DNA of 64,000 nt from Bryobacteraceae bacterium (lineage in GTDB: Bacteria; Acidobacteriota; Terriglobia; Bryobacterales; Bryobacteraceae). The position numbers and the translations under genes are program-made. The notes below the pieces were generated by a model. That model searched no databases and was not told where the DNA came from. It saw only the letters and a program-made list of their open reading frames with translations. Within the stretch, counting starts at the first letter, position 1. Each line of letters opens with the position of its first letter. Below are positions 10,645 to 63,717 of the stretch, in pieces. Location: the NCBI GenBank assembly GCA_965214005.1, contig CBDCAQ010000009.1, forward strand, positions 79,758-143,757, written 5' to 3'.

Positions 10645-10850
10645 GTAATTTACCCTCCGCAAATTGTACTTGAATCATTGAAAACGCGCGTAAACACTAC
10701 TGTTTCTCGTGAAATACCGTAAATGTGCTTGCCAGTCCCACAGCCTGCGGTGAAACTTCTCCCGCATCAACGATTTGGTTGGGCTCGCGCTGAACATGCG
10801 CCAGACAGCCCGGCAACAACACTTTTGCACCACCTTTGGAGGATCATAAG

Positions 10851-35918: not shown

Positions 35919-35991
35919 GACACACTCCGAACGGACTGCAACAAACTTGTAAACGGCGATCATCCGCCGGCGATTTGAGAAAAGATGACGA

Positions 35992-37386
35992 TTATTGCGA
36001 GTAGGCTCCACGCGTGTACCCTGCCGAGGACGGCCGGGGGGTCCCGTTGATGTCCGTTGTGGGTGCAAGGTACGACGTGCCACTTCCGAGGGCAGGACTG
36101 CCTGGGAGAAGCTTGAGGCTGACGCCCGTAGGAGTGGTTGCGATTGGAGTGGCAAAAAGAGGATTTACGACCAGGTCGTGAGGCCCGGATACAGCACCCG
36201 AGAGCTTTGTGCTTCCCCCGTAGTAGACGTTGTAGTCTATCGTGCAGTGGGTAGTACAGCCATTGCTTACGACGATGGGGTTCTGGCCAACAGAACTGTA
36301 CATCACGTTGTTAATCACATTCACATCGTCGACGAAGTTGATGTTTACCTCTCCACGACCGCTCTCCGCAGGGGAGAGTACATTGCCATAGGTGGAGTTG
36401 TTCACGACGTCGATATGGCTGGAGTGAAAAGCCTCAACCGCCGCACTTCCATCGTTATATATGACATTGTTAGCGATCAGGGTTCTTCCGGTGTAGGCAA
36501 TCTGCGAGTTGCCCGTTCGATTATTCTGGTTCGTATCGATGATGATCGCCTCGCCATCAGTGATAGCAGGGGCAGGCTGATTCTGCTGCCAGGGAACATA
36601 TTCCTGATTGTTGTACAGGAGATTGTTCGTGATGATCATTTTGTATGGAGTGGCAACGTCGGCAGGGTTGGAATCCCAGTCCGTGAGGTTGGAAATTGCA
36701 CTCGTTCCATAAGCCGTATACCAGGATGTGTTATAGATGGTGTTGCCCGAGATGGTGATGTAGTCGGCACTCACAGTTGCGACTCCCGCTCCGCCGCAAT
36801 CATGGATGACGTTGTTCAAAATATTGATGTGGTGCGGACCCGCGGTTGTCACACCGCTCCCACCCACAATTCCTACGCAATTACCATTGAACTCTGGGTA
36901 TTTGGCAGCTTGCGAGGCATACTGCAGTGCCTGCGCGAGAGTGACATTCTGGTTGTTCCCGATGATCGTCAGTCCCTTCAATTCGACATAGGAAGCGGCA
37001 CTGTCGAACTGCACGCCGTTATAGCCGGTAAATGAAATCACGGGCGTCGCCCCCGGATACCCGTTGAACTTGATCCAGTTGTTAGGCGTTCCCGACACAC
37101 TGATCGTCACAACGGGAGAAGATGCAATGCTGTTTGAGTAAGTGCCATTCATGACGAGCACCGTCATGCCTGGTCCTACAACATTGGCGGCGCGCTGCAG
37201 GGTCCGAAACGCGGTTCCCGTGGACAGGCCATCCGAAGTGTCATTGCCGGCTCCACTGACGTAAAAGGTGGTGCCAGCGGTTGCGGGACCCGCTGCCTCC
37301 GGAGTCAGGATGCCGGAGGCACAGCCGCTCAACCCGAGAACACAAAGAGCAGCAATCAGCGCGAGATGGGAAAACTTGAAGTTCAT
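35992..37386 (-). CDS. right-handed beta-helix repeat lipoprotein (pectate-lyase fold)
   Basis: ATG at 37386 follows AAGAGGA. Lipobox LGLSGC. FYVSGAGNDTSDGLSTGTAFRTLQRAA plus repeated NN(V/L)I(Y/H) coils. The C-terminus contains LLPGSPALGSG. Confidence 0.7.
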   Translation of the reverse strand: MNFKFSHLALIAALCVLGLSGCASGILTPEAAGPATAGTTFYVSGAGNDTSDGLSTGTAFRTLQRAANVVGPGMTVLVMNGTYSNSIASSPVVTISVSGTPNNWIKFNGYPGATPVISFTGYNGVQFDSAASYVELKGLTIIGNNQNVTLAQALQYASQAAKYPEFNGNCVGIVGGSGVTTAGPHHINILNNVIHDCGGAGVATVSADYITISGNTIYNTSWYTAYGTSAISNLTDWDSNPADVATPYKMIITNNLLYNNQEYVPWQQNQPAPAITDGEAIIIDTNQNNRTGNSQIAYTGRTLIANNVIYNDGSAAVEAFHSSHIDVVNNSTYGNVLSPAESGRGEVNINFVDDVNVINNVMYSSVGQNPIVVSNGCTTHCTIDYNVYYGGSTKLSGAVSGPHDLVVNPLFATPIATTPTGVSLKLLPGSPALGSGTSYLAPTTDINGTPRPSSAGYTRGAYSQ

Positions 37387-49522: not shown

Positions 49523-49757
49523 CGGTCCGTCGCGTGCGGAAGCAAGATTACGGGACTTCGTACTGGCGCACACGCGAAGGAAAAAGATCGCCCGCCGGCC
49601 CCTTTCGCTGGTGTCTTCAGGTTGGTACCGAATCTACTAGGCTTTGTGGACGCAATTGACGATGAAACCGCCATCAACGTGATTGGCGTTTCCGCCTGGC
49701 ATGCGTGCGCGTGCAGAAGAGATCGTTTTGGGACTCTCAACGCTTTACGCGGCAAGT

Positions 49758-50195
49758 AAACCAAACCTGCTAGGGAGCTCTGCCCCCACGCGCGAGCAAG
49801 CCGTTGGAAAATGCTTAGTGCATCTCCAGGTATTCGCTTCCTCCGGTCCCTCCGGGACCGCCGTTTCAGGGCACTTTTCCGCACAGCGTTGCACTTGCTA
49901 CCCCTCGCAGGCGTGGGCCTGCTCCAAGGCGTGTCTGAGCGCAGCCACAGCCAAACACTGAGAAGCGAGAAACATCCCATGAACACCACACAGAGCAGCA
50001 ACGCCACCACGAACAACGAAAACCAGCAACATCGCCACCCTTTCCGCACCCCCCCAAACCGCAGACTTCCCGCGAAGTCATCCAGGCCAACGTGCAACTC
50101 CTCATCGAGCAGCTTGAGGCAGGACACAGCGAAGGCCTCACCGCCTACCCCACGCTATGGGCCACTTTCACGACTACAGCTTCGGGAAACGGGAG
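49758..50195 (+). repeat. direct repeat copy A: diverged duplicate of the ardC leader and 5' coding region
   Basis: It aligns base for base with 59456-59875, including a 55-nt identical run (49867-49921 = 59565-59619). Confidence 0.8.
49979..50195 (+). pseudogene. truncated, frameshifted ArdC N-terminal fragment
   Basis: The same ATGAACACCAC start is used as the intact gene. A 22-nt and a 1-nt insertion put the conserved REVIQANVQLLIEQLEAGHSEGLTA segment out of frame. Homology ends after about 60 codons. Confidence 0.65.
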
Positions 50196-50549: not shown

Positions 50550-53500
50550 CTACCAGCCGATGGTGAAGGTCATGTGCTCGGGCTGCTGCGTTGTGTTGGT
50601 GGTGCTTTGGTTATTGTTGTCGTCGTAGGAGAAGCCGTAGGCCAGCCCGCCGACAGAGTGGTTATGCCAAAATTGCGAGTAGAAGTTAGCCGGTGTGCTG
50701 GCATAGTAGCTCGCAGCGTTGGCCCAGTTTGCCGGCGCGGAGAGTACACCCCGGTTGATCGCCGAACAGATCTGGTTTTCGAGTTGAAGTTGCACAGCAT
50801 TCTCGTCCCCCTGTGCGGCGGAACTGCCCGCCACCCCGCTGGCCATGGTGCCGGCACAGCCTAGAACGTCCTGCGTGGAGGGCTGCTGGACGACGAAGCG
50901 CTCGCCAGCATGGGCCGCCGAGGGATTAGCCTCCTGAAACGTGAGGCTTGCTCCGCTTGCGGTGCCGGTGTAAGTGCGGCCGGACAGGGTAATGGAAAGA
51001 GGCTTCGTCTGGTAGCTTGCCCAGGCCTGTGCGATGGTGGCATCGAAGTAGTTGCCATAGGGAGCACCCGCTGCAAGTCCCATCTTCGCCGGAGAAAAAA
51101 TCCGGAGGTTAGACATAGCTGGCGGCTGGAACTGTAATGGCACTTCCTTTGCAAACTCCTGATCGAGTTGCGCAATCGACTCCGTGATTCCAGTCTGCTT
51201 GTGGAAGCTGCCGGCGTTAGCCCAGACATCGAGCAGGAGCGGCAAGCCGAACTGGTCCACCTGCGTGGTGTTGATGTAGACCGTGTTCGCGTTGGCCGTG
51301 CCTCCGTAGTTGAACTCGTACCAGTCGAAGTGCGTGTTGAAGTTAGGGTCTGAGCCGTTCTGCGGATTGGGTCCCGCATAGCCGTTTATCTTACCGTTCT
51401 TGTCTGCATAAACCTGTACGTAGAGCGGCGCTCCAAGCGAGATGTAGGCTCGCGCGGAGGTAAGCAAGGGCAGCTTGAGCAAAGTACTCTGCGCGAGGGT
51501 GAACGAGTAGTTGCCGTAGCCGGTTCCGTTGGCTGCGGTCAAATGATTCGCTGCGCTCGCATCGTTTAGCGTGAAATCGACAACCGAGCCGGCGGGAGTG
51601 ACATAAGCAAACTGTCCGTTGGCCGGGTCCATGCCGATGACCGTGACGTACACCTGGTTGTTGGCCCAGGCCCCGTGAGTGTTGTTGACGAGATCTACCC
51701 CGAGGAAGCCGGGATAAACCGTATAGCTGCCGACGGTGAGAGTGGCGGGCATGGAGGTGACGGTCGCCGTGCCGGCTGCATTGCCGACTGTGACCGTGAA
51801 CTGCGCGCCACTGTCGGCGGCCGTGAGTGTGGAGGTTGTGTAACTCGCAGCGGTTGCACCTGTGATGAGCGCGCCGTTACGAAGCCACTGGTAGGTGAAC
51901 GGTCCGGTGCCACCGGCTACGACGTTGAAGGTCGCCGTCCCGCCGATTGTGGCGCTCTGGCTGGCCGGCGGTTTCGTAATGCTGAGGGTTCCGGAAGGAG
52001 CTGTGGGGTTCGATCCGTAGACCTCTAACTCATAAAGCGAATAGCCGTACTGCGATCCACGGGTCGTACCGTACATGCGCACATAACGTGCGCTGATAGG
52101 GGTGAAGCTCAGGTTCTCCACCCCACCAAAGCCGGCTGACTGCGTAAAGACGGGCGTCCAGCTTTTGCTGTCGCTTGAAGCCTGTATCTGATAGGCCTTG
52201 CCGTAGGCTGCCTCCCAGCGCAGCACGACCTGGTTGATGGTGGTGGTGGTGCCCAGGTCGACGGCAATCCATGAAGGATCGACACCGGCTGCGGAGGCCC
52301 AGCGTGTCGTCTGGTCTCCGTCCACCGCGAAGGCTGCGCCGAGCGATGCTTCATCCTGACTGCTGCTGTCCGTAGCGGGTTTGTGCAAGGCAAGGTTGAG
52401 CGTGGTGGGCGTGGAAGAGGTGACAGTCAAGGCCACCGCCGCGGGTGTGGTGGTGCCGGAAGCGTTGGTCACCTGAACAGCAAAGGTACTGCCGCTATCG
52501 GCGGACTTCAGCGCAGGAGTGGTGTAGGTTGCGGCGGTAGCCCCGGCGATGACCACGCCGTTGCGCAGCCACTGGTAGGTGAACGGGCCGTTGCTGCCCG
52601 CGGTAACCGTAAAGGTTGCCTTAGAGCCCGCAGCGGCGGTCTGGGCTGCGGGTGCCGAAACGATCGCAGGCAGGTTGGCACCAAACGCCTGGAACTCAAA
52701 GAGCGAGTATCCGTACGCTGTCGCTCTCGTAGTTCCCTGCATTCGCAGGAAGCGTGCCGTGACGGGGCTGAAGTTCAGCGTTTCGACGCCACCGGTCCCG
52801 GCCGTTTGCGTGTACACAGGCGTCCAGTTCTGCGCGTCGTTCGAAGCCAGGATCTGGTAGGCCTTGCCGTAAGCCGACTCCCAGTAAAGCACCACCTTGC
52901 TGACCTGAGTGGAGGAGCCTAGGTCAACCTGGAACCAGGCCGTGTCAGAAAAGGCGGAAGACCAGCGAGTTGTGAGGCTGCCGTCTACAGCGTTGATCGG
53001 CGCCAGCGATGCGTTCTCGTCTCCGCTGCTGGTCGCGGTTTTGTAGAGCGCAAGGTTGGTGGAACCGGCTACAGGACTGGTGACCGTTACCGCCGCTACG
53101 GACGAGGTGACAGAGCCCGCGGCATTGCTGACGACCACGCTGTACTTGCCGCCGTTATCAGCCCCGTACAGCGAGGGTGTGGTGTAGGTGGCGGCGTTAG
53201 CATTCGCCACGCTGGCACCATTCAGAAGCCACTGGTAGGTAAAGGGCGCGACACCTCCTGCAACGACCGTGAACTGTGCCTGGGCGCCTGCCGTAACGGT
53301 CTGCGCGACGGGTTGGGTCACGATCGTCGGCAGGGCCGACGCATACACCTCGAACTCCCACAGTGAGTAGCCGTAGATGCTCGAGCGTGCCTGCCCGTTC
53401 AACCGCACATACCTTGCGTTGACGGCGTTGAAGGTGATGTTTTCCGTTCCACCAAGTCCGTTGGCCTGCTGGTAAACCGGCGTAAATTTGACCCCGTCGG

Positions 53501-56500
53501 GCGAAGTAAGGATTTGATATTTTGTTCCGTAAGCCCGCTCCCAGCGCAGTACCACCTGCCCAATCGCCTGCACGGAACCGAGATCAACCTGCAGCCATTC
53601 GGCATCGGCAAACGCAGAAGACCAACGTGAGGTCAGATCGCCGTCAAAGGCCGCGGACGGCGGAAGCACGTTGCTGTTCTCATCGCCGCTGCTGCTTGCA
53701 ACCTTCTTGAAAGCAAGGTTTGCGCCTGCAGGGATAGGACCGTTGCAGAAGCCCGGGATAGCGGCGTCCGTTGCGCCTGCGCTGCAGGAGCTGGGCTGCG
53801 TGGGCGCGACCGGCGCGGCGGTCACCGTCAACAACGCATGGGTGCTTGTCACCGTCGCCGTGGAGTTGCTGACGACCACGCTGAAGACCGCATTATTATC
53901 CGCTGAGGACAACGTCGTCGTAACGTAGGTTGAGGCCGTTGCGGACGCGATGGCCGCACCATTACGCAGCCATTGATAGGTTGGTGCGGGTGAGCCGGTG
54001 GCCGTGACGGCGAAGGCGGCCGTTTGTCCAACGGCCACGGTCGTGGGTTGTGGTTGAGCACTGATGACAGGTGCCTGCGAGACGAAATTTCCCGATGTAC
54101 AGAGGACTGCGCCGGGCCAGTTTTTGGTGACCTTATAGCTCGCGGTCCCGTCGAAGTTGACCAGCGCCGTCTCGGAAGCATCCTGCGGGTCCACCGTGGA
54201 CGTCCAAGTGTTCCACGTGCCGGGGAACGCGCAGGAAGCGTTGTTGCTGCCACTGATACCTAGCGCTTCAGACTGCGTGGGTACCCGCATGTTGATGCTC
54301 TTGCAGTAGTTCACCGCGTCTACGCCGGTGAACTGCGAGCCCGCTGCGCTGTCGGTCTGGATGGTCCGCGTCCAAGTGAGTCCGATAAGGTTATCGAGCA
54401 CCAGGGCGGCGTTGTGGGCATTGACCGTGTAGCGCTCGTTCGAGCCGCCGCATTGAGCCACGTCATACACCTGGAACTCAAGCAGGGAGTAGCCATACTG
54501 CGTTGCGCGCTGCAGGCCCAGCATGCGTACGTAACGCGCCTGCACGGTAGGAAAGTTAAGGGTCTCCACGCCGCCAGAGCTGAGAATCACCTTGGTCGCA
54601 TCCTGCCAGGCAGGGTTGGTCGCAGGGTCCTGATTGGTGTACTGGATCTTGTACTGTGCGGCGTAGGCGTTCTCCCAGTTCAAGATGACGGTGTTGAAGC
54701 CCTGAACGCTGCCGAGATCAACCTGCAGCCACGAGGGATCGACTCCCGCGACGACGGTTGCGGGCGGCTGGCCGGCAGAAGCAGAGGCCCAGCGGCTGTT
54801 GACGTTGCCGTCGACTGCGTTCTCCGCACCGAGGCAGTTGACGCCGCTGAGCGGAGGAGTGGTGGTCTGATCCGTGCAGGCGTTTTGCGTGCTGCTGGCG
54901 GTGGCTACACGGTTGAGCGCGAGGTTGATGCCGGGGGGCGCAAGCGTGAGCTGCGCCGCGGCACTGGTGACCGCCGTGTTGGCCGCATTGTTGACCGTGA
55001 GCGTATAGGAGCCGACCGTGGAAGCACTCATCGCGGGAACGTTGTAGGTGATGATGTTCGCGGTCTGCGTGTTGCTGACGAGGATGGAGCTGGCGCCTCC
55101 CGCGGGGGTGAAGTTCCACGAGTAGGTGAACGGCGCGGAGCCGGCCACGGTTGCGCTGAGCTGCACCGGCTGATTGACCGGAACGATTCTTCCCTGGGGT
55201 TGTGCGGTAAAGCTGACGGGAATTGGCGCGGTGACCGTAAGTGCGACGGTCGCGGACTGTACCTGGTTGAGTGGGTTCGTCACAACGACATAGACGCTCG
55301 AAGTGCCTGCCGACAGGAGAACCGGTGTGACGTACGTGCTCTGTGCGCCGTTTGCCACGGGAGCGCCGTTGACGAACCATTGATAGCTGAGTTGAGGCGA
55401 ACCACTGGCCGCAATTGTGAACGTCGCTGCCTGACCGACGACAGCGTTCTGTGACTGCGGCTGCAGGGTGATTGCCGCGTTGGCATCAGCGCTGACAGTG
55501 AGCTTTACAGCGTTCGAGGTGACGTTGCCGAAGTTGCTGGAGATGGTGACGCTGACGGTCTTGCCGTTGTCTGCAGCGGTGGTCGCAGCGGTGCTATAGC
55601 TCGTGCCGGTAGCCCCCGAAATCGCCGCCCCATTCACATACCACTGGTAGAGCAGCGTTCCCGAACCACTGGCTGCCACCGTAAAGGTTGCCGGGTAGCC
55701 CGAGGAAACGGAAGTATCGACCGGCGGCACGATGATCGATGGCGCCTGCGACTGCACCGGAGCAGCCGGTGCGACGGACGCAAGCTGGACACTGCCGCTC
55801 ACGAGCCCTGGCGCGGAGGCCGTGACCGTGACGCTGCCCGGAGCGAACGTGCTGCGCAGTGCGATCTTCTGCAGGCCGCCTTCGAAGTTCAACTCGGGAT
55901 CGCCGGGTGAGTGAAAGAAGGCATACGGCACGCCATTGACAACGTTGACGTTCGCCTTTGAGAACGCATCCTGGTAGTACGTGCTGACGGCGGGGTCTGC
56001 GACAAGCTGCTGGGTGCCGCCCATGTAGGTGGCCGGCCCGCTCACGCTGAAGGTGACGTTGTCCGCTGCAGTGGGAACCAGATTCCCTTGCGCGTCCTGC
56101 ACCTGCGCAACGATGAAGGCGGCGTCAGAACCGTTCGAGGTCCATTGAAAGCTGGTGCCGTCCGGCCGTGTCACGTTGGGCACCACGGAAAGCACGATCT
56201 TGTTTTCCGCGCCCGCGGTCGTGCGTGTGTCGGACGCTCCCTGCACCACATTGCCGCTCGCGTCGATACACTCCGCAGTGACGGTGCCCGGTGCCCAGTT
56301 CACCATCCAGTGAACCTGGCCCGGCATGGTGGTCACGTTCTGGTTAATGCTGTTGTTCGTCGCTATGTTCCAGGGATTGGGCGTCTGGTCGGCGAGCGCG
56401 GCGCCGGTCACCGGGTCCTTGGCGACGCCATTGATAAGCAGGCGGACGGCAGGGCAATTGCTGAAGGCGTTTTCCTGCAGCGGCGTGCCCGCAGTGTACT

Positions 56501-58634
56501 GGTACGCGCGATTCCAATGGTGCGCCAGCGCGACCACCGGCTTGATGGAGTACGGCACCCAGTTGGCCTGGTAGATGTAGTAGAGCAGCCGTGGAAAGCG
56601 GTTCTGATCGACCATGCTGTAGCCCAGGCTGCGCACATAGTTCGTCATGCTCGCGTTGTTCTGGTACTCGGCATAGAGAGCGACTTCGCCCGGCGTATCG
56701 GCAAAGTACCACTGAGCCATGCCGAAGGTATTGTTCGCGCGGCCGTCGCGCCAGTCGTTTAGGTAGCCGTTGGCGAACGCGAGTTCGTAGTCCCAGGCAA
56801 GCCCGCGCCCAGTGCCCACGTTATCCCAGTACTCTGCGCCGAAGGCTGGATTGTTTGGGTTCTGCTGCTTGTTGCCAACCTCGCAGCCGGCGCCATCACA
56901 CTCATCGATAAAGGCGTACTGCGGTGAATAGGCGCGAGAGGCCTGCTGCCGCGGGTTGATGTTGTCCCACTGCTGTCCAAGTGCGCCAAGCTGCTGGGCA
57001 AGTGCGAGATTGTTGCCGCCGTTATCCATCTCCCAGTCCAGGATGGACGGATGGCTGCGGTCGCGGATGATCATGTCGCGGTGCAATTCCTGCTTCAACT
57101 GCGCGTCGTCTGCAGATGGATTCGTGAACGCGCCTTCCCCGTCGCCACTTGGCTGGTCGATCATGACGCCGTAAGCATCCGCTGCTGCGACAAACTCCTC
57201 ACTGCTGGTGGAGTGGCCGGGCCGCCAGATGTTGCCGCCGCTCGCGGCAAATTGCGCCAGGTCGCGCCACTGCTGCTCATCCGGGACAGAAGATCCCAGC
57301 GCAGGATAGTCGTATCTACCGGAGCCACCCCATAGGTACTGCGCATGGCCATTGAAGTAGGGGAAGTTCGCGTCCCACGTGATGGTGCGGATGCCCAGCG
57401 GGCTCACGGTTGCATCGACCACGACGCCATTGACGCTGACGATGTGATACACGCGATACATATAAGGCTTGCCGTACACGGAGTTGTTGGGGTACCAGAG
57501 CGTTGGATTCGCGATGGTAATCTTCTGCTCGAACATGGCCGCCGGCGTCGACGGAAAGGTGGCCGCAGTCATTGGAGCGACTGCCTGCATAAGCGGGGGT
57601 GCAGTCAGCACGACGTCGCCCAGGGCATCCACCACCTGCGTTGTCAACGTAACCTGCTGGGTCACCGCGGACTCGTTCAGCACATTGGTTTGTACATCGA
57701 CCACGGCCGAAGCAGCCGTCGCGGTCCCCTGCGCCGCAGGGACCTCGGAGACTGTACCCACATACGTTCCCCAGGTCCTGGTGTTCGAGTACACGTTGAG
57801 TGGAATATGGATCGCATTGGTCAGCACCAGGAAGACGTTGCGAAAGAGCCCCGCCATGGCTTGTCCGAAGCGGAAGGCACCTGAGAAGTTTGGCTGCTCA
57901 AACCAGCTCGAAGCCCTCGAGACATCGACCGCGATTACGTTGTCCGTCACGCCGTCTGCATGGAGATACGGAGTCAGATCGACCACGACCGGAACAAATC
58001 CGACGACATGCGTTGCCTGTGCGTCCGCCGCCACCTGACTGATGCCCTTGAGCAGCGTACCGTTGATGTATACCTGCACGCCGGTGTGCGTGCCTTCGAG
58101 ATTCAACAAGAACTTTTGCGCCGCATATTTGCTGTCGATTTTGAAGTGCAGACGATACCAGTTGTCGTTTCCGGTGAGCGAACCCTGGCCGCCGCCAGAC
58201 GCCTGGTTGATAAACGTGCGCTTGATGTTCGCGTCGTAGGGCAGACCAACCTGCTGCCAGTTCACACTGCTGTCCGAGTTCTCCACAAACCCCGGAGTCG
58301 CATAGCTTGGCGAGGTCTTCGAGTTCTCATACCACCATTGGCTCTGCGGCGCGTTGGAGTCGGTCGCCGCGTTTCCGATCGACTGCGGCACGCCTGCGGA
58401 CAGATTGATCGTCATGCGCTGCGACAATGGCACAGAGACTTCTTTTTGCTGCGCACGCGCAAATGTCAAAGCGCTCAGCAGGAAGACAATCCAGATGATT
58501 CGTCTGAACGTAAGCCTGACACGTAATGAACAAAACTCCGACGGGAGCTCTGGTTTTGCGAGGCGATTGGCGATTGAACAGCTGTGCCATGAGGCGTCTG
58601 ACTTGTCGTTGCATGCGGATGATCCGTCTGGCAT
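50550..58634 (-). CDS. giant secreted multidomain carbohydrate-active protein: GH2-like module, Ig-like x7, F5/8 type C (discoidin/CBM32-like) x4, DUF1566-like, C-terminal GH64-like beta-1,3-glucanase module
   Basis: ATG at 58634 follows AGGAGA; the ORF is open from 58682. A signal-like segment (RRIIWIVFLLSALTFARAQQ) is present. GH2 motifs: NWYRLHF, RDRSHPSILDW, GAEYWD. Repeated units: FTYQWLRNG Ig units and NAVDG...TRWSS...W.QVDLG discoidin units. GH64-like tail: DWYEFNYGG, NTTQVDQFGLP, GGLAYGFSYDD. Confidence 0.8.
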   Translation of the reverse strand: MPDGSSACNDKSDASWHSCSIANRLAKPELPSEFCSLRVRLTFRRIIWIVFLLSALTFARAQQKEVSVPLSQRMTINLSAGVPQSIGNAATDSNAPQSQWWYENSKTSPSYATPGFVENSDSSVNWQQVGLPYDANIKRTFINQASGGGQGSLTGNDNWYRLHFKIDSKYAAQKFLLNLEGTHTGVQVYINGTLLKGISQVAADAQATHVVGFVPVVVDLTPYLHADGVTDNVIAVDVSRASSWFEQPNFSGAFRFGQAMAGLFRNVFLVLTNAIHIPLNVYSNTRTWGTYVGTVSEVPAAQGTATAASAVVDVQTNVLNESAVTQQVTLTTQVVDALGDVVLTAPPLMQAVAPMTAATFPSTPAAMFEQKITIANPTLWYPNNSVYGKPYMYRVYHIVSVNGVVVDATVSPLGIRTITWDANFPYFNGHAQYLWGGSGRYDYPALGSSVPDEQQWRDLAQFAASGGNIWRPGHSTSSEEFVAAADAYGVMIDQPSGDGEGAFTNPSADDAQLKQELHRDMIIRDRSHPSILDWEMDNGGNNLALAQQLGALGQQWDNINPRQQASRAYSPQYAFIDECDGAGCEVGNKQQNPNNPAFGAEYWDNVGTGRGLAWDYELAFANGYLNDWRDGRANNTFGMAQWYFADTPGEVALYAEYQNNASMTNYVRSLGYSMVDQNRFPRLLYYIYQANWVPYSIKPVVALAHHWNRAYQYTAGTPLQENAFSNCPAVRLLINGVAKDPVTGAALADQTPNPWNIATNNSINQNVTTMPGQVHWMVNWAPGTVTAECIDASGNVVQGASDTRTTAGAENKIVLSVVPNVTRPDGTSFQWTSNGSDAAFIVAQVQDAQGNLVPTAADNVTFSVSGPATYMGGTQQLVADPAVSTYYQDAFSKANVNVVNGVPYAFFHSPGDPELNFEGGLQKIALRSTFAPGSVTVTASAPGLVSGSVQLASVAPAAPVQSQAPSIIVPPVDTSVSSGYPATFTVAASGSGTLLYQWYVNGAAISGATGTSYSTAATTAADNGKTVSVTISSNFGNVTSNAVKLTVSADANAAITLQPQSQNAVVGQAATFTIAASGSPQLSYQWFVNGAPVANGAQSTYVTPVLLSAGTSSVYVVVTNPLNQVQSATVALTVTAPIPVSFTAQPQGRIVPVNQPVQLSATVAGSAPFTYSWNFTPAGGASSILVSNTQTANIITYNVPAMSASTVGSYTLTVNNAANTAVTSAAAQLTLAPPGINLALNRVATASSTQNACTDQTTTPPLSGVNCLGAENAVDGNVNSRWASASAGQPPATVVAGVDPSWLQVDLGSVQGFNTVILNWENAYAAQYKIQYTNQDPATNPAWQDATKVILSSGGVETLNFPTVQARYVRMLGLQRATQYGYSLLEFQVYDVAQCGGSNERYTVNAHNAALVLDNLIGLTWTRTIQTDSAAGSQFTGVDAVNYCKSINMRVPTQSEALGISGSNNASCAFPGTWNTWTSTVDPQDASETALVNFDGTASYKVTKNWPGAVLCTSGNFVSQAPVISAQPQPTTVAVGQTAAFAVTATGSPAPTYQWLRNGAAIASATASTYVTTTLSSADNNAVFSVVVSNSTATVTSTHALLTVTAAPVAPTQPSSCSAGATDAAIPGFCNGPIPAGANLAFKKVASSSGDENSNVLPPSAAFDGDLTSRWSSAFADAEWLQVDLGSVQAIGQVVLRWERAYGTKYQILTSPDGVKFTPVYQQANGLGGTENITFNAVNARYVRLNGQARSSIYGYSLWEFEVYASALPTIVTQPVAQTVTAGAQAQFTVVAGGVAPFTYQWLLNGASVANANAATYTTPSLYGADNGGKYSVVVSNAAGSVTSSVAAVTVTSPVAGSTNLALYKTATSSGDENASLAPINAVDGSLTTRWSSAFSDTAWFQVDLGSSTQVSKVVLYWESAYGKAYQILASNDAQNWTPVYTQTAGTGGVETLNFSPVTARFLRMQGTTRATAYGYSLFEFQAFGANLPAIVSAPAAQTAAAGSKATFTVTAGSNGPFTYQWLRNGVVIAGATAATYTTPALKSADSGSTFAVQVTNASGTTTPAAVALTVTSSTPTTLNLALHKPATDSSSQDEASLGAAFAVDGDQTTRWASAAGVDPSWIAVDLGTTTTINQVVLRWEAAYGKAYQIQASSDSKSWTPVFTQSAGFGGVENLSFTPISARYVRMYGTTRGSQYGYSLYELEVYGSNPTAPSGTLSITKPPASQSATIGGTATFNVVAGGTGPFTYQWLRNGALITGATAASYTTSTLTAADSGAQFTVTVGNAAGTATVTSMPATLTVGSYTVYPGFLGVDLVNNTHGAWANNQVYVTVIGMDPANGQFAYVTPAGSVVDFTLNDASAANHLTAANGTGYGNYSFTLAQSTLLKLPLLTSARAYISLGAPLYVQVYADKNGKINGYAGPNPQNGSDPNFNTHFDWYEFNYGGTANANTVYINTTQVDQFGLPLLLDVWANAGSFHKQTGITESIAQLDQEFAKEVPLQFQPPAMSNLRIFSPAKMGLAAGAPYGNYFDATIAQAWASYQTKPLSITLSGRTYTGTASGASLTFQEANPSAAHAGERFVVQQPSTQDVLGCAGTMASGVAGSSAAQGDENAVQLQLENQICSAINRGVLSAPANWANAASYYASTPANFYSQFWHNHSVGGLAYGFSYDDNNNQSTTNTTQQPEHMTFTIGW
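51732..54077 (-). repeat. in-frame tandem coding repeats (Ig-like + discoidin unit, period about 660-740 bp, 3.5 copies)
   Basis: The recurrent DNA block CCACTGGTAGGT(G/A)AA(C/G)GG occurs at about 51888, 52570 and 53230, with a diverged copy near 53969. It encodes the P-F-T-Y-Q-W motif on the minus strand. Confidence 0.7.
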
Positions 58635-59455
58635 AAGTCTCCTGTGAAGAACTCGTCGTAAGCAAAAAGTGTCGGTCTCCAACTGAGTGGAGTGTGTCTA
58701 ATCCGGCGTACGCAGGCATCTGCGCTCCCCCCAATGGCGCTGGGAGCCGGTTCAGCTTCGCGTGGAGTCACTTTGGTCAATTGGCGATCTTCCTGCTCGT
58801 CTCGCAAGTGAAGTGCCAAATGAAACTCGCTCGGCCAAATGTTCCGGATTTGAATAAAGCGCCACGATTGCTGTTTATTGCTGACAGTTTGTGAATCGCC
58901 GAACGCGCCGGCCAGCAAGAGCACTTCGGTGCTTGGCAAGTTTTACTGCAGCAGAGGAAAAAGGTTCGTAGAAGGGCCCAGCAGAGCTCGCATGCTGCGA
59001 GCCAAACGACGCCTCCATAGCGCTTTGCCCGTGGAAGCAATGATTGTTCTTTCGATATTGATCATTCTCTTCGGGCTTTCTCTGGCGTGCATTTGGTGCT
59101 CTGCTCCTTGCGGAGTGCCAGGGCGTGCCTGCTCGATCGGTCTTCTCGCACTTCGGGCCGCCTCCCAAGCCGCTTCGTTTGTCGCGAACTTCAGACTAAC
59201 CATACTAGTGAGAACTAGGTCTCGATATCTTCTGTTCATCTGCACGACGAACATAGCGACCGCACACAAAGCACCTCCGCACATCCTCTTCAAACCCTAG
59301 TCCACCCCAGCTCTGAGGGGGGAATGCTTTCCCCTGTCTTCAGAGTGCGCCGGCACACCACGCTGGCGGACTCTTACGCCACCCCTTCGAGCGGGGATAC
59401 CCCGCAGCGCCCCAAAGCGATCTCTTCTGCACGCGCACGCGCGTGCCAGGCAAGG

Positions 59456-59875
59456 AAACCAAACCTGCTAGGGAGCTCTGCTCCCACGCGCGCGCAAGCC
59501 GATGGAAAAAGCTCCGTGCAGCTCCAAGTATTCGCTTCCTCCGGTCCCTCCGGGACTGCCCTTGCAGGGCACTTTTCCGCACAGCGTTGCACTTGCTACC
59601 CCTCGCAGGCGTGGGCCTGGGCCAAGGCGTGTCTGAGCGCAGCCACAGCCAAACCACTGAAAAGCGAGGAACACCCCATGAACACCACCGAATCCACCAC
59701 CAGCAACATCGCCACCCTTCCCGCCGCCCCCAAGCCTCAGACTTCCCGCGAAGTCATCCAGGCCAACGTGCAGCTTCTCATCGAGCAGCTTGAGGCCGGA
59801 CACAGCGAAGGCCTCACCGCCAACCTCACCGCTATGGGCCGCTTCCACAACTATTCCTTCGGAAACATCCTGGAG
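59456..59875 (+). repeat. direct repeat copy B (intact ardC leader and 5' coding region)
   Basis: See copy A at 49758-50195. Confidence 0.8.
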
Positions 59876-60634
59876 ATTGCACGGCAGCGGCCAGATGCAA
59901 CCCGCGTTGCAGGTCTGTATGCGTGGAACCAGCTAGGCCGCAAGGTTATCAAGGGCCAGAAGGGTATCCGCATCCTCGCCCCGATGATTGGCACCCGCAA
60001 GAAGAAAGACACCGAGGCCAACAAGAGCAAAGACCCCGCAGCCGTCAACAGCCCCGTACTGGTCGGATTTCGCGCCGTCTACGTCTTCGACGTGTCGCAG
60101 ACAGAGGGTGCAGAGCTTCCCGCATTCACCGAGCGCACCAGGGGAGAGGTTGGAGAGTACCGCGAACGCCTCATCGACTTCACCATCGCCCAGGGTATCG
60201 AGCTTGAGTTCAAGGAGAGCATAGCCCCCGCACTTGGCATGAGCTACGGCGGCCGCATCGCCATCCTTCCCGGTCAGGAACCAGCCGAGGAGTTCAGCAC
60301 CCTTGTTCACGAACTCGCACACGAGATGTTGCACAAGGCAGAACGCCGCACCGCCACCACCAAAACCGTACGCGAGACAGAAGCCGAGGCAATCGCCTTT
60401 GTAGTTTCGCAAACCATCGGCCTTGACGCAGGACGCGCGTCAGCCGACTACATCCAGCTTTACCACGGCAACGCCGCACTCCTCACCGAGAGCCTAGAGG
60501 TCATTCAACGCACCGCAGCCCTGATTCTCTCCGCACTGGAAACCAAGGAAGAAGCCGAGCAGCCGGAAACCGCACCCACAACCGAGCAGCACACCACCAA
60601 CGCCACCGACGCCGTACTCGCGGAGGTGGCCTAG
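59678..60634 (+). CDS. ardC: ArdC-like antirestriction protein (N-terminal ssDNA-binding domain + HExxH metalloprotease domain)
   Basis: FHNYSFGNILEIARQRPDATRVAGLYAWNQLGRKVIKGQKGIRILAP (ArdC-N/DUF1738-like) and TLVHELAHEMLH. ATG at 59678 follows GAGGA. Confidence 0.8.
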   Translation: MNTTESTTSNIATLPAAPKPQTSREVIQANVQLLIEQLEAGHSEGLTANLTAMGRFHNYSFGNILEIARQRPDATRVAGLYAWNQLGRKVIKGQKGIRILAPMIGTRKKKDTEANKSKDPAAVNSPVLVGFRAVYVFDVSQTEGAELPAFTERTRGEVGEYRERLIDFTIAQGIELEFKESIAPALGMSYGGRIAILPGQEPAEEFSTLVHELAHEMLHKAERRTATTKTVRETEAEAIAFVVSQTIGLDAGRASADYIQLYHGNAALLTESLEVIQRTAALILSALETKEEAEQPETAPTTEQHTTNATDAVLAEVA

Positions 60635-61050
60635 TGCAAACCATTCTGGACATCCTCAAGAAGGCCGGAGGTTGGCACCCCGGCCTGTACCTCAAAATTG
60701 ACAACGCGCCATTTATGCAGCTTGTCATTGAAGCACTGGACGAGTCAGGCCCAATGGGTCTCCCCGCCCTTTCAGTCGCGCACTACGGCACACAGAACGG
60801 CGACGCGATGCGCGACCCGGAGATGTGTTTCGAGCTTGGCCTGTACGGGGGAGTTCACCTGGTTCCCTTCTACTGGCGCAACGATTACGCCGGAGCCGAG
60901 GAGTGGAGCCGGAACGTGGTCGCAAACCGCTACGTGCACCTGTTTGAACTCCACACCCAGCACCAGCGCTTTGCTGAGACGTGGGACAGGAACCTGCGTC
61001 AGCAGGGCTTTATCGAGGCATTCAACCCGCAGAAGCACGTTCGCGGCTAA
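60634..61050 (+). CDS. hypothetical protein, translationally coupled to ardC
   Basis: The GTG start overlaps the ardC stop (TAGTG). The 138-aa acidic protein has an HYGTQNGDAMRDPEM motif that I associate, from memory only, with small proteins next to ArdC genes on mobile elements. Confidence 0.5.
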   Translation: MQTILDILKKAGGWHPGLYLKIDNAPFMQLVIEALDESGPMGLPALSVAHYGTQNGDAMRDPEMCFELGLYGGVHLVPFYWRNDYAGAEEWSRNVVANRYVHLFELHTQHQRFAETWDRNLRQQGFIEAFNPQKHVRG

Positions 61051-61125
61051 CCCCTTCCCCGGAGCGGAGGCAGGGCAGCGCAGCCGCTTACAACCACCAC
61101 GCCACCAGCACACAGGAGAACCACC

Positions 61126-62814
61126 ATGCAGAACAGCAGCGAATTCCAGTACATCGCCATCGACACCATTCACGAATCAGCCACCAACCCCCGCCGCACG
61201 TTCGACGAGTGCAAGCTCGGCGAACTGGCCGAGAGCATCCGCACCAATGGCCTGATTCAGCCCATCACGGTACGGCCCAACTCGCAAGGCTTCGAGATCG
61301 TCGCAGGAGCCAGGCGCTTTCGTGCCGCTCAGCTTGCCGAACTGTTTTCCCTTCCCGCCCGTATCGTCGACATCAACGACGCCCAGGCGCTTGAGTGGCA
61401 GTTGGTCGAGAACTCGCAGCGGGTGGACGTTCACCCCTACGAAGAGGCCCAGGGCTTCCAGCGGCTGCTGGACATGCCCGGTTACGACGTGGCAACACTG
61501 GTCGAGAAGTCAGGCAAGAGCGCAGCCCACGTTTACGCCCGTCTGTCTCTCCTGCAGCTTGTGCCGTCCATTGCCGAGGCATTCAGCGCCGAGCGCATCA
61601 CCGCCTCCCACGCCAACCTGCTAGCCCGTCTCCCGCAGGAGGCACAGGCTAACGCATACGAGCAGTGCTGGCGCAAGGATTGGCAGGACAAGGAACCGCA
61701 CCTGCTACCCGCCAAGCACCTTTCTGCGTGGATACAAACCAACCTCTACCTTTCCCTTGCCGAAGCCCCGTTCGACAAGGAAGACCCCACGCTAAACCCA
61801 CCCGCCGGAGCTTGCGTTACTTGCCCCCGCCGCAGCGGATTCAATACGTCCCTGTTTGCCGACGTGCAGGGCGACCAGTGCCTGGACGCCCCTTGCTTCC
61901 AAACCAAGGTAAACGCCCACATCGATTGCGAAGTTGCCGCCCGTCCCGAGCTGGTGCAGATCGAGAACGGATACCGTGCCCCGAAAGAACAACGCCCCGG
62001 AGCCGTACGCAGCGGAACCTATCGCGAAATCGACACCACCCACCAGAACCCCGACGCGGAACCCATCGCACCGTGCGAAGCCGCAAAGCCCGCCATCATC
62101 GTCTACGGCAAGCGCGTAGGAACCACCCTCACCGTTTGCACCGACAACAACTGCCCCGTTCACGATCCCCGCGCCGCCGCCAAAGCAGCCGAACACCCCG
62201 CCCCGGTCATGCCGCCAGCACCCCCGGCAGAAACCGAGGAAGAGGCCGAAGCACGGAAGCAGCAGCACGAGGAGCAGCGCAAAGCACACGAAGCCGAGCA
62301 GGAGCGCAGGGCCGAGGAGTTCAAGCAGCAGCAGGAGCAGGAAGAGAAGCGATACGAGGCAGAACAGGCCAAGCGCGAGAAGCAGCGTAAGGCACGGCAG
62401 GACACGTTCGAGCGCATCATCGCCGCAGCCCCGGCCAGCTTCACCGCCGCACAGTTGCGGGTTGTCCTCCGCGCCATCGTCAACCTTGACCCTTACACCT
62501 TCGCCGATGATCTGGCCGAGGATATCGCCGCCGATAACGAGAACGAACAGCGCAGCGCAGAAGAACTGCTGCTGGCCACCATCGACGCCACCGCCGATGA
62601 GAAGCTGACAGCCTTTGCGCTTCGCCTCGCCCTCTCCGGTCACGTTGGCATTCCGCGCGAGAACGAGTTCGATTTCCTCACCGAAGCCGAAGCCGCTTTC
62701 GCCCCACCCCAACCGAAGAAGAAAGCTCCGCCAGCTAAGGAGAAGAAGCCCACGCTGGTCAAAACCTCGCCCGTCAAGAAAGCCAAAGTAGCAAAGAAGC
62801 AGATTGCGGCCTAA
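61126..62814 (+). CDS. ParB/Spo0J-like nuclease-domain protein with Cys cluster and charged coiled-coil
   Basis: The N-terminus has GLIQPITVRP....FEIVAGARRFRAAQLA (ParB N-domain). It also has CVTCPRRSGFN....GDQCLDAPC plus CTDNNCP, and an E/K/Q/R-rich stretch. ATG follows GGAGAA. Confidence 0.8.
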   Translation: MQNSSEFQYIAIDTIHESATNPRRTFDECKLGELAESIRTNGLIQPITVRPNSQGFEIVAGARRFRAAQLAELFSLPARIVDINDAQALEWQLVENSQRVDVHPYEEAQGFQRLLDMPGYDVATLVEKSGKSAAHVYARLSLLQLVPSIAEAFSAERITASHANLLARLPQEAQANAYEQCWRKDWQDKEPHLLPAKHLSAWIQTNLYLSLAEAPFDKEDPTLNPPAGACVTCPRRSGFNTSLFADVQGDQCLDAPCFQTKVNAHIDCEVAARPELVQIENGYRAPKEQRPGAVRSGTYREIDTTHQNPDAEPIAPCEAAKPAIIVYGKRVGTTLTVCTDNNCPVHDPRAAAKAAEHPAPVMPPAPPAETEEEAEARKQQHEEQRKAHEAEQERRAEEFKQQQEQEEKRYEAEQAKREKQRKARQDTFERIIAAAPASFTAAQLRVVLRAIVNLDPYTFADDLAEDIAADNENEQRSAEELLLATIDATADEKLTAFALRLALSGHVGIPRENEFDFLTEAEAAFAPPQPKKKAPPAKEKKPTLVKTSPVKKAKVAKKQIAA

Positions 62815-62871
62815 CACGGCAGGGGGCCACGCGGCCCCCTCGCTTTCAACAACGCAGAGCCAGGTGCAGCC

Positions 62872-63717
62872 ATGGACAAAACAGAACACACTATCCGCCA
62901 GCTACTCGCCGCACTTTCCGCCCAGGGCTACGATATCGGCGTCCTCACTGATGCAGGGATGTATCGCGTCGAAGCCGCGCCAGCTTCCCGCGTCCTGCGC
63001 ATGCTTCCCTTCCTCAAGCATCGCAATGCCCACGGCGCACACATCTACCTACGCCCCACCGGAGAAAGCTGCTACACGCTGCTGGACGATCTCACCGCCG
63101 CAACTCTTGCCCGCCTTACAGTCGAAGGCTACGCCCCCGCCGCCGTAATCGAGACAAGCCCCGGCAGCTTTCAGGCTTGGCTTAGACACCCGCAGCTGTT
63201 CCCCAAAGAGCTTGGCACCCTCGCCGCGAAAACTCTTGCCGAGCAGTTCAGCGCAGATCGCAGCGCCGCCGATTGGCGCAGGTTCGGTCGTGCCCCCGGC
63301 TTCACCAACCGTAAGCCGCAGCACCGCAACCCGCAGGGCTTTTACCCTTTCGCCCATCTTCGCAGTTCTACCGGAACAGTCTTCCCCGAAGCCGACGCCT
63401 TCCGCGCCCGATTGCTCACGATCCAGCAGAAGGCAGAAGCTGAACGCGCTGCCATGCGTCTCAGCTTCGCAGCCCGGCCCTTCAGCCGGTACGCCGCGCC
63501 CGTCACGCTCTCCCGCTTCCGTTCGTCGCCGAACTACCATGGACGGCCAGCCGCCGCAGATATGGCCTTCTGCATCGCCGCCGCCGCTCAAGGTTGGACC
63601 GAGTCCGACATCGCCGCCGCACTCAGCCGCGAATACCTCTCCCGCAATGCCAGCCGCTCCCGTCAAGCCGCCTACATCCGTCGCACACTTTCAAAAGCTC
63701 TTCGTTGGGCATCCTGA
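62872..63717 (+). CDS. RepB-type DNA primase domain protein (RSF1010 RepB'-like)
   Basis: NAHGAHIYLRP, LLDDL, PAAVIETSPGSFQAWL and GRAPGFTNRKP match the RepB_primase family motifs as I recall them. Confidence 0.65.
   Translation: MDKTEHTIRQLLAALSAQGYDIGVLTDAGMYRVEAAPASRVLRMLPFLKHRNAHGAHIYLRPTGESCYTLLDDLTAATLARLTVEGYAPAAVIETSPGSFQAWLRHPQLFPKELGTLAAKTLAEQFSADRSAADWRRFGRAPGFTNRKPQHRNPQGFYPFAHLRSSTGTVFPEADAFRARLLTIQQKAEAERAAMRLSFAARPFSRYAAPVTLSRFRSSPNYHGRPAAADMAFCIAAAAQGWTESDIAAALSREYLSRNASRSRQAAYIRRTLSKALRWAS

Follow-up and report, generated by a model that had tools for sequence, protein, structure and literature searches.

CelA of Caldicellulosiruptor (GH9-CBM3x3-GH48, where GH denotes a glycoside hydrolase family and CBM a carbohydrate-binding module) has two catalytic modules tethered by binding modules, and the characterised bacterial GH64 enzymes are best known as lytic glucanases of fungal and yeast walls. 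Among CBM32 modules, DD1 and DD2 of the Paenibacillus sp. IK-5 GH8 chitosanase/glucanase are reported as chitosan-specific (Shinya et al., 2013, cited in PMC5635096). We analysed a stretch of 64,000 nucleotides (nt) from a Bryobacteraceae bacterium (GenBank assembly GCA_965214005.1, contig CBDCAQ010000009.1, positions 79,758 to 143,757 of the forward strand; hereafter the window), which encodes on its minus strand a giant protein with a GH2 core near its N-terminus, a GH64 module at its C-terminus and a long array of immunoglobulin-like (Ig), discoidin and lectin-like modules in between. The gene is one more copy of a catalogued, uncharacterised, plasmid-mobile and cross-phylum family of multidomain carbohydrate-active enzymes (CAZymes), not a new kind of protein, and we consider it probable, at roughly 0.55, that its product is a secreted, multivalent two-enzyme hydrolase of fungal-type cell-wall glycans.

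The gene is a single uninterrupted open reading frame (ORF; 50550..58682, minus strand) of 2,710 codons counted from a TTG at 58682, which is the origin of the residue numbering used throughout (ATG-based numbers are lower by 16). The in-frame ATG at 58632-58634, codon 17, is preceded by AGGAG 5-9 nt upstream and is the likely start; a 100% identical protein in public data, P0001, has the same 2,694 amino acids (aa) as the ATG-started product. A reading of the DNA made earlier from its letters and ORFs (the sequence-only reading) had called this gene by far the largest in the window, and so it is, the next largest ORF encoding 1,314 aa. The module order assigned with Pfam is signal peptide, GH2 core, three Ig domains, discoidin/CBM32, Lcl_C-like module, three Ig+discoidin units, a seventh Ig domain and GH64. 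With boundaries placed from internal repeats, the features are as follows.

50550..58634, minus strand: giant-protein coding sequence with start ATG 58632-58634 and stop TAG 50550-50552, 2,694 aa
58452..58526, minus strand: Sec-type signal peptide, aa 53-77, from sequence inspection and the conservation boundary
55758..58451, minus strand: GH2 core, aa 78-975
57825-58169, minus strand: sugar-binding beta-sandwich of the GH2 core
57387-57713, minus strand: Ig-like domain of the GH2 core
about 56500-57326, minus strand: TIM barrel of the GH2 core
57018..57035, minus strand: GH2 beta-4 motif W550-E551-M-D-N554-G555, from ungapped alignment
56832..56834, minus strand: candidate nucleophile Glu617 in FGAEYW, from alignment to the SEY Glu of 6hpd
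56244-56471, minus strand: DUF4982
55758-56147, minus strand: GH2_C5 and terminal beta-sandwich
54936..55745, minus strand: Ig1-3, aa 980-1249, Pfam Ig_3/I-set/BiPBP_C
54459..54926, minus strand: Disc1, aa 1253-1408, Pfam F5_F8_type_C
54078..54455, minus strand: Lcl_C/DUF1566-like module, aa 1410-1535, PF07603
53814-54071, minus strand: Ig4, aa 1538-1623
53337-53720, minus strand: Disc2, aa 1655-1782
53073-53330, minus strand: Ig5, aa 1785-1870
52677-53057, minus strand: Disc3, aa 1876-2002
52413-52670, minus strand: Ig6, aa 2005-2090
52011-52397, minus strand: Disc4, aa 2096-2224
51732-51986, minus strand: Ig7, aa 2233-2317
50553..51728, minus strand: GH64 module, aa 2319-2710, reaching the C-terminal residue
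51315-51317, minus strand: predicted catalytic Glu2456 (FDWYEFNYGG), from alignment
51255-51257, minus strand: predicted catalytic Asp2476 (TTQVDQFGLP), from alignment

Most of this map had been anticipated by the sequence-only reading. Its signal-like segment at aa 52-77 reappears at aa 53-77, Pfam GH2 models and PDB entry 6hpd place a GH2 protein in its GH2-type region (aa ~130-960), and Pfam and the internal repeats give aa 980-1249 for its three Ig-like domains (aa ~980-1247). Its discoidin domain (aa ~1250-1407) corresponds to the F5_F8_type_C match at aa 1253-1408, and its three Ig+discoidin units with a seventh Ig domain (aa ~1536-2317) were reproduced, the binding-domain map proving accurate within a few residues. 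The GH64 motifs it had listed at aa ~2318-2710 lie in a full-length Glyco_hydro_64 match (aa 2327-2708) that is backed by solved structures, so the profile searches it had proposed located both catalytic families where it had put them, and neither placement failed. For its DUF1566/Lcl-C-like segment (aa ~1410-1532) the location held, with PF07603 matching aa 1427-1528, but the score remained below the Pfam gathering threshold.

Judged by profile, alignment and motif, the C-terminal module is a complete GH64 domain with both catalytic carboxylates and has every sequence feature looked for. Glyco_hydro_64 (PF16483) matches it with 260.4 bits (cutoff 27) over profile positions 3-370 of 370, and the last ~394 residues match the solved GH64 enzymes 9vp9, 5h4e, PbBgl64A (5h9x) and LPHase (3gd0) with expectation values (E) of 5.7e-63, 5.2e-61, 9.4e-51 and 1.4e-14, respectively. 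The residue changed from E to A in 5h9y, a variant of 5h9x, aligns with Glu2456, as does E120 of the 3gd0 chain, and Asp2476 aligns with D136 of that chain. The pair Glu2456/Asp2476 corresponds to Glu154/Asp170 of LPHase, whose 16-residue spacing the Glu/Asp pair of 3gd0 shares. The catalytic Glu is kept in all of 111 homologs and the Asp in 76, while the other 35, all of the Dyella type, retain the Glu and have Asn for the base Asp (TTQVNQFG). The Asn-bearing modules are found in homologs P0050-P0096 (Dyella/Rhodanobacter type; for example L003, 17183-18352), and it may be that the GH64 end became inactive or mechanistically altered after transfer into Gammaproteobacteria.

The N-terminal module is assigned to GH2, although to a divergent, 6HPD/'GalA'-like clade, because 6hpd is its best structural match and its NCBIfam GalA score lies far below the equivalog cutoff. 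Four Pfam GH2 models score above their cutoffs and together describe a multi-domain core of clan GH-A, namely GH2_N (aa 172-286, 31.3 bits, cutoff 28), Glyco_hydro_2 (aa 324-432, 36.8 bits, cutoff 23), the GH2_C TIM barrel (aa 453-662, 23.3 bits, cutoff 21) and GH2_C5 (aa 846-891, 51 bits, cutoff 32); DUF4982 (aa 738-813) falls just under its cutoff, with 23.6 bits against 23.9. The core matches 84 solved GH2 chains, best of all 6hpd (E 9.7e-50, positions 60-811 of a 901-aa query segment), while ordinary beta-galactosidases align only up to strand beta-4 and then again past the barrel. GalA, the best NCBIfam model, gives 216.7 bits over aa 131-966 with an equivalog cutoff of 900. The names GalA and GalB were presumably taken from genes of Xanthomonas; 'beta-galactosidase' as a name for such proteins is an annotation transferred from the family name and calls for caution.

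The acid/base site sets this GH2 core apart. In the alignment to LacZ, 7cwd and 6hpd, the segment HPSILDWEMDNG lines up without gaps with HPS(V/I)I(I/M)WS(L/I)GNE, and this places Gly555 at the canonical acid/base position (Glu461 of LacZ, in the Asn-Glu motif that closes strand beta-4), so the canonical residue is missing. Four residues upstream lies an invariant glutamate, Glu551 (57030-57032), and W550, E551, N554 and G555 are all invariant in the 16 family members aligned; 6hpd has Trp at the canonical site (WEGGNW). Glu617, assigned by alignment to the nucleophile position on strand beta-7, likewise shows no variation among 16/16 family members, and 68 of 76 aligned relatives have Glu there. 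We then compared aa 401-800 with 1.84 billion representative proteins and tabulated the best 150 of 2,036 matches at E<=1e-3. Among 98 GH2 relatives, which are phylogenetically related rows, Glu occurs only at the upstream (i-4) position in 72, only at the canonical position in 25 and at both in one, with no indel between the two positions. Because the two glutamate positions are mutually exclusive among these relatives, the pattern favours an acid/base relocated by four residues over a decayed enzyme. The 'WE..N[G/Q/Y]' clade, in which this motif replaces 'W[S/G/A]..NE' on strand beta-4, was noted among relatives P0121-P0269 and includes 6hpd. An AlphaFold2 model of the core, built from a 16-sequence alignment, had a mean predicted local distance difference test (pLDDT) score of 50, with barrel residues 369-653 below 50, and its Glu551-Glu617 geometry was unusable.

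Between the two catalytic families lies an array of putative binding and spacer modules. The Ig domains, of which hidden Markov models (HMMs; Ig_3/I-set) detect six stretches and repeat inspection seven, are 27-56% identical pairwise, and the PDB matches of Ig1-3 are the bacterial/phage Ig-like proteins 9ncf and 9c2d. The four discoidins have both the HMM match (F5_F8_type_C, 300 bits in total) and the ~130-aa beta-sandwich of their family and are 48-59% identical to one another; Disc1 carries two insertions, one of them holding a Cys pair. Their identity to CBM32 DD1/DD2, 43-57% (50% for Disc1 with the chitosan-binding DD1), is as high as that among themselves. In the PDB, DD1/DD2 (4zy9, 2rv9, 4zxe, 2rva) are matched at E 1e-38 to 2.5e-40, the best being Disc4 with 4zy9 (E 2.5e-40), and lead the next discoidin class (E 1e-9) by ~30 orders of magnitude. 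On these alignments we place the discoidins in the same CBM32 subfamily as the chitosan-specific DD1/DD2.

The Lcl_C-like module has four conserved Cys and is 63-84% identical in most of 120 homologs (48-56% in divergent ones). Its PF07603 match reaches 24 bits when the whole protein is searched and 32 bits when the segment is searched by itself, in both cases short of the cutoff of 34.9, and PF07603 is the top family for this module in 27/27 family members (positions 2-115 of 117, best E 7e-9). A C-type-lectin-like fold is predicted for it from an AlphaFold2 model of moderate quality (pLDDT 70.7), whose top Foldseek matches are all C-type-lectin-like and all weak (E >= 4e-3), among them the C-terminal domain of Legionella Lcl (8q4e, template modelling (TM) score 0.57) and Bdellovibrio Bd2740 (8oks, TM 0.57-0.63). 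In the Ig4-Ig7 segment (51732..54071), which contains a Cys-containing linker between Ig4 and Disc2 and the internal DNA repeats D2/D6/D7, length and content differ among homologs.

At the N-terminus, inspection of aa 53-77 shows a basic n-region (RVRLTFRR), a hydrophobic core (IIWIVFLLSALTF) and an AXA-type cleavage site (ARA/QQ) without a lipobox Cys, as expected of a Sec-secreted protein. Protein conservation against ~100 homologs begins exactly at the predicted mature N-terminus, QQKEVSVPLSQR, where the pattern QQ[KV]E.S[LV]PLSQR is kept and residues upstream of it are not, and DNA homology to the two closest loci (L001 and L002) begins at the same point, 58452-58454. The product is thus predicted to be Sec-exported and non-lipidated, with a mature length of ~2,630 aa. 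No C-terminal sorting signal was found in it, the GH64 domain running to the stop codon. The signal peptide n-region is preceded by an unusually long, unconserved extension of 36 aa (58527-58634); no other standard start codon lies nearer the signal peptide, so the long n-region is a small oddity. Long unconserved N-terminal extensions are also present in the gene calls of many homologs, others having short classical signals.

The sequence-only reading had not recognised this architecture as described. No paper describing or assaying a GH2+GH64 fusion was found in the searchable literature, but the order itself proved common and catalogued; of the possibility it had allowed for, that the same architecture might be both common and characterised, the first half holds and the second does not. 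About 100 of the 120 best protein clusters (at 90% identity) have the same order, that is signal peptide, GH2, three Ig, discoidin, Lcl_C-like module, variable array and C-terminal GH64, with zero residues beyond GH64. When one genome from each of 185,579 species was scanned, 183 loci were seen to encode the GH2 core; we examined 83 loci, 80 of these and three others, and a GH64-type module (24-82% identical) lies within the same ORF in 52 of them. Because the same order recurs in ~100 clusters and 52 loci, with GH64 always C-terminal, we conclude from these comparisons that the GH2+GH64 pairing is under selection. The continuous architecture is present in complete chromosomes (Dyella caseinilytica CP064030, Tunturiibacter, Acidobacteriaceae ZG23-2) and in the closed 300-kb plasmid pACIX902 of Granulicella tundricola MP5ACTX9, which encodes a 2,515-aa homolog (WP_157478238.1; L084 8932-16479). 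This homolog is annotated 'beta-1,3-glucanase family protein' and others 'discoidin domain-containing protein'; it adjoins an IS5 transposase (L084 17809-18756), and its host is a cultured type strain convenient for genetics of the family.

No part of the protein is better conserved than the GH2 core, which is 74-89% identical in most homologs and 47-89% across family members; GH64 is 57-82% identical in the closest ~90 homologs. The nearest relatives, at 86%, are metagenome-assembled genomes of Granulicella/Terriglobus. Carriers belong to the Acidobacteriaceae (Granulicella, Terriglobus, Edaphobacter, Tunturiibacter, Terracidiphilus, Silvibacterium, Bryocella) and the Rhodanobacteraceae (Dyella, Rhodanobacter) and come from acidic soil, peat and lichen-associated taxa, many of them from Sphagnum peat. 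The middle array varies, with Ig+discoidin units in the window copy and malectin/fn3/Ig_7 in Dyella. A neighbour-joining tree built from the GH2 core groups all Rhodanobacteraceae sequences as one clade nested within acidobacterial ones; as amino-acid identity across the phyla is 75-77%, one horizontal transfer from Acidobacteria to Dyella/Rhodanobacter is apparent from the sequences. A paralogous subfamily of 1,800-2,200 aa, ~58-62% identical in the GH2 core and without GH64 (loci L050-L083), occurs in Acidobacteria, Myxococcota and Cellvibrionaceae (for example L082 Hyalangium, L083 Cellvibrionaceae and L079 Silvibacterium). Some genomes carry both types, so what stays constant is the GH2 core, and the C-terminal module can be exchanged.

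Taken as a two-enzyme hydrolase, the protein would work as follows. The CBM32 and lectin-like modules would bind an insoluble composite glycan multivalently, GH64 would make inverting endo-cuts in beta-1,3-glucan and release oligosaccharides, and GH2, as a retaining exo-beta-glycosidase whose acid/base is probably supplied by Glu551 and not by the canonical position, would trim beta-linked residues of the same substrate. Flexible spacing by the Ig array would allow both catalytic heads access to the substrate while the protein stays attached. The most plausible bound glycan would be a fungal or lichen cell wall, because beta-1,3-glucan is there interwoven with chitin/chitosan and galactose- or mannose-containing glycans; the chitosan-type CBM32 modules, the GH64 family and the ecology of the carriers point the same way, and we hold this choice of substrate tentatively, at a little under even odds.

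Several points weigh against the two-enzyme proposal and its substrate. No outer-membrane secretion or anchoring signal was identified in the giant protein, no operon context points to a substrate, its neighbours being unconserved, and no biochemical characterisation (activity, binding or secretion) of any family member was found in the searchable literature. The ligand of a CBM32 module is not reliably readable from 50% identity, and GH64 catalysis may not be essential to every family member, given the Asn in 35/111 homologs. The relocation of the GH2 acid/base is argued from sequence, the AlphaFold barrel model being unusable, and the GalA/GalB relatives of the GH2 core, if they are the Xanthomonas genes, had no detectable beta-galactosidase activity.

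Of the alternatives, the one that survives best, although we regard it as improbable, keeps both enzymes and changes the target to plant, moss or algal glycans (callose, arabinogalactan-type beta-galactans) or to a bacterial exopolysaccharide, including the producer's own matrix. Among GH2 relatives are beta-galactosidases and beta-glucuronidases whose substrates are plant or algal glycans, and 6hpd comes from an ulvan-utilisation locus; the CBM32 class binds many ligands (matches include an alginate lyase and GH84/GH89 proteins), the window is rich in plant-/uronate-type CAZymes (GH88, heparinase II/III-like, GH42, GH125), and many carriers live in Sphagnum peat. Against this, the closest solved discoidins are by a wide margin the chitosan-specific ones (E 1e-38 versus 1e-9), bacterial GH64 is best known from lysis of fungal and yeast walls, and the neighbouring CAZyme genes differ in composition and are not conserved with the giant gene elsewhere.

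Less probable again is a beta-1,3-glucanase of one activity whose targeting apparatus is oversized, in which only GH64 is catalytic and GH2, having lost its acid/base, has become a large head with a carbohydrate-binding or structural role. In every family member Gly555 takes the place of the canonical acid/base Glu, the GH2_C TIM-barrel score is marginal (23.3 versus 21), and the GH2-like proteins of Xanthomonas campestris named GalA and GalB (genes galA, galB) had no detectable beta-galactosidase activity on X-gal or o-nitrophenyl-beta-galactoside (ONPG) (PMC5958218). Failure on ONPG/X-gal is, however, uninformative about other beta-glycosides. Moreover, Glu551 and Glu617 are invariant at 47-89% overall identity, simple decay would not give a 'WE..N[GQ]' clade (72/98 relatives) that is mutually exclusive with 'NE', and the GH2 core, the most conserved part, survives in the paralogs that have no GH64. 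An assembly chimera, or a fusion of separate GH2 and GH64 genes via a lost stop codon or frameshift, might be suspected in a draft-type contig with the gene at a composition junction and between repeats, but was rejected as next to impossible because the same continuous architecture occurs in complete chromosomes and closed pACIX902, and because in L001 and L002 a DNA identity of 70-75% is collinear over the whole stretch between mature N-terminus and stop codon.

It is tempting to take the two-enzyme hydrolase further and to see in the GH2 core a large, biochemically unexplored 'WE..N[GQ]' clade with a moved acid/base and a new specificity, which together with GH64 and chitosan-type CBM32 would form a dedicated fungal-wall machine that crosses from Acidobacteriota to Gammaproteobacteria and is plasmid-borne; we rate this extended version as unlikely. 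If it were true, the value of the trait in acidic soils would be high enough for it to cross phyla and to travel on plasmids.

The surroundings of the gene include the following features.

49751..50188, plus strand: left direct repeat, holding the upstream region and first ~65 codons of an ArdC-like gene, a truncated, frameshifted pseudogene fragment
59449..59865, plus strand: right direct repeat, holding the 5' region of an intact ArdC-like gene with a probable ATG at 59678
59678-60634, plus strand: ArdC-N-like gene, Pfam
61126-62814, plus strand: ParB gene, Pfam
62872-63717, plus strand: RepB primase gene, Pfam

The repeat-bracketed segment and adjoining mobile-element genes described in the sequence-only reading are both present, as direct repeats at 49751-50188 and 59449-59865 and as the ArdC-N, ParB and RepB primase genes that Pfam places at 59678-63717. 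The two repeats are 86% identical over 440 nt including a 22-nt indel (91-92.5% in ungapped blocks), and a ~45-nt piece abutting them is inverted between the sites (49688-49732 versus 59411-59459). Their layout suggests either recombination between two related plasmid or integrative and conjugative element (ICE) backbones or a duplication that accompanied gene insertion. At the nucleotide level the ArdC/ParB/RepB region is 72-74% identical to Acidisarcina polymorpha and Granulicella tundricola plasmids. GC content at third codon positions (GC3) is 0.75 in the giant gene, 0.74-0.75 in ArdC and ParB and 0.69 in RepB, while genes to the left of the giant gene mostly have 0.59-0.70, with one at 0.74. 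On the best reading of the sequence, a plasmid- or ICE-like segment would carry the giant gene as cargo at its edge, where it borders on a CAZyme-rich region.

That region, positions 1-48200 of the window, is dense in genes for carbohydrate utilisation and has a GC3 of mostly 0.59-0.70, unlike the giant gene. It encodes two GH3, a GH88, a melibiase-like and a heparinase II/III-like protein, two beta-helix proteins, a GH125 and a GH42, together with two CarboxypepD_reg-type TonB-dependent receptors, an FGE-sulfatase-like protein, ROK and PfkB kinases and, at 32211-36155, a 1,314-aa NHL/Big_3_5/MBG repeat protein. The cluster of TonB-dependent receptor, GH125, GH42 and GH3 to the left was considered as context and set aside, as its composition differs and it is not syntenic elsewhere. 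A conserved operon context was also rejected, as L001, L002 and L003 have different neighbours and DNA homology does not extend past the gene borders. Promoter and terminator scans of the window gave counts at chance level, and it contained no tRNA or Rfam matches.

In at least 11 acidobacterial loci a conserved protein of ~450 aa is encoded divergently just upstream of the giant gene (L002 8120-9475(-), L084 6886-8259(-), L004, L006, L011, L022, L023, L028, L037, L041 and L049). It has no Pfam/NCBIfam match; a cytoplasmic domain at its N-terminus, bearing F(R/S)NSKRYPxLLRYIV, is joined by one transmembrane helix to an outer domain of ~240 aa, features that make it a candidate membrane-bound regulator or sensor. 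The gene is missing beside the giant gene of the window; a distant, 34%-identical paralog lies elsewhere in the window at 9289-10662(-), divergent to a TonB-dependent receptor gene (10836-14165).

If the proposed function is true, the family would be a major tool of abundant acidic-soil and peat bacteria (Acidobacteriaceae, Dyella) for degrading fungal and lichen necromass, a breakdown step that matters for soil carbon turnover. It also offers a clean system in which to ask why two unrelated catalytic modules are held ~1,340 residues from each other, and whether a GH2 enzyme functions when its acid/base residue is displaced. As the 'WE..NG' GH2 clade is large, taking in most of the closest 98 relatives sampled, an activity assigned to it would set right many annotations as 'beta-galactosidase'. 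Within the window the giant gene is not an exceptional sequence feature, and most worth experiment are the displaced GH2 acid/base, the chitosan-type CBM32 modules and the Asn in the Dyella GH64 modules.

Compared with known systems, the giant protein has the same module order as the RefSeq/GenBank proteins named 'beta-1,3-glucanase family' or 'discoidin domain-containing' from Granulicella, Dyella, Edaphobacter, Silvibacterium and Tunturiibacter; the window copy differs in lacking the ~450-aa divergent upstream gene seen in at least 11 loci and in lying beside plasmid genes. Dyella-type members combine a malectin/fn3/Ig_7 array with Asn at the GH64 base, whereas the window copy combines Ig+discoidin units with Asp. 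With the GH64 enzymes LPHase of Streptomyces matensis (3gd0), PbBgl64A of Paenibacillus barengoltzii (5h9x), 5h4e and 9vp9 it shares the full-length fold signature and both catalytic carboxylates, but those enzymes have 370-450 aa and zero or one CBM, whereas GH64 here makes up the last 15% of a chain of 2,694 aa, with GH2 in the same chain.

With P17_GH2 of the Formosa agariphila ulvan locus (6hpd), whose activity is not stated in the citing papers examined, and with NCBIfam GalA/GalB, the GH2 core has in common the domain order, the motif 'HPS..WE..N', a non-Glu acid/base site and the nucleophile motif [SA]EY; similarity to 6hpd is nevertheless remote (172 bits over ~750 aligned residues). 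The discoidins share 43-57% identity with DD1/DD2 of Paenibacillus sp. IK-5 (2rv9, 2rva, 4zxe, 4zy9) over the whole ~128-aa domain, although DD1/DD2 are attached to GH8 and the discoidins here to GH2/GH64, and Disc1 has its two insertions with the Cys pair in addition. The overall plan is that of CelA-type multi-catalytic CAZymes, in which unrelated catalytic modules are tethered for synergistic attack on an insoluble composite substrate; the giant protein differs from these in its family pair (GH2+GH64), in a far longer spacer (~1,340 aa, 12 modules) and in its producers, which are diderm soil bacteria.

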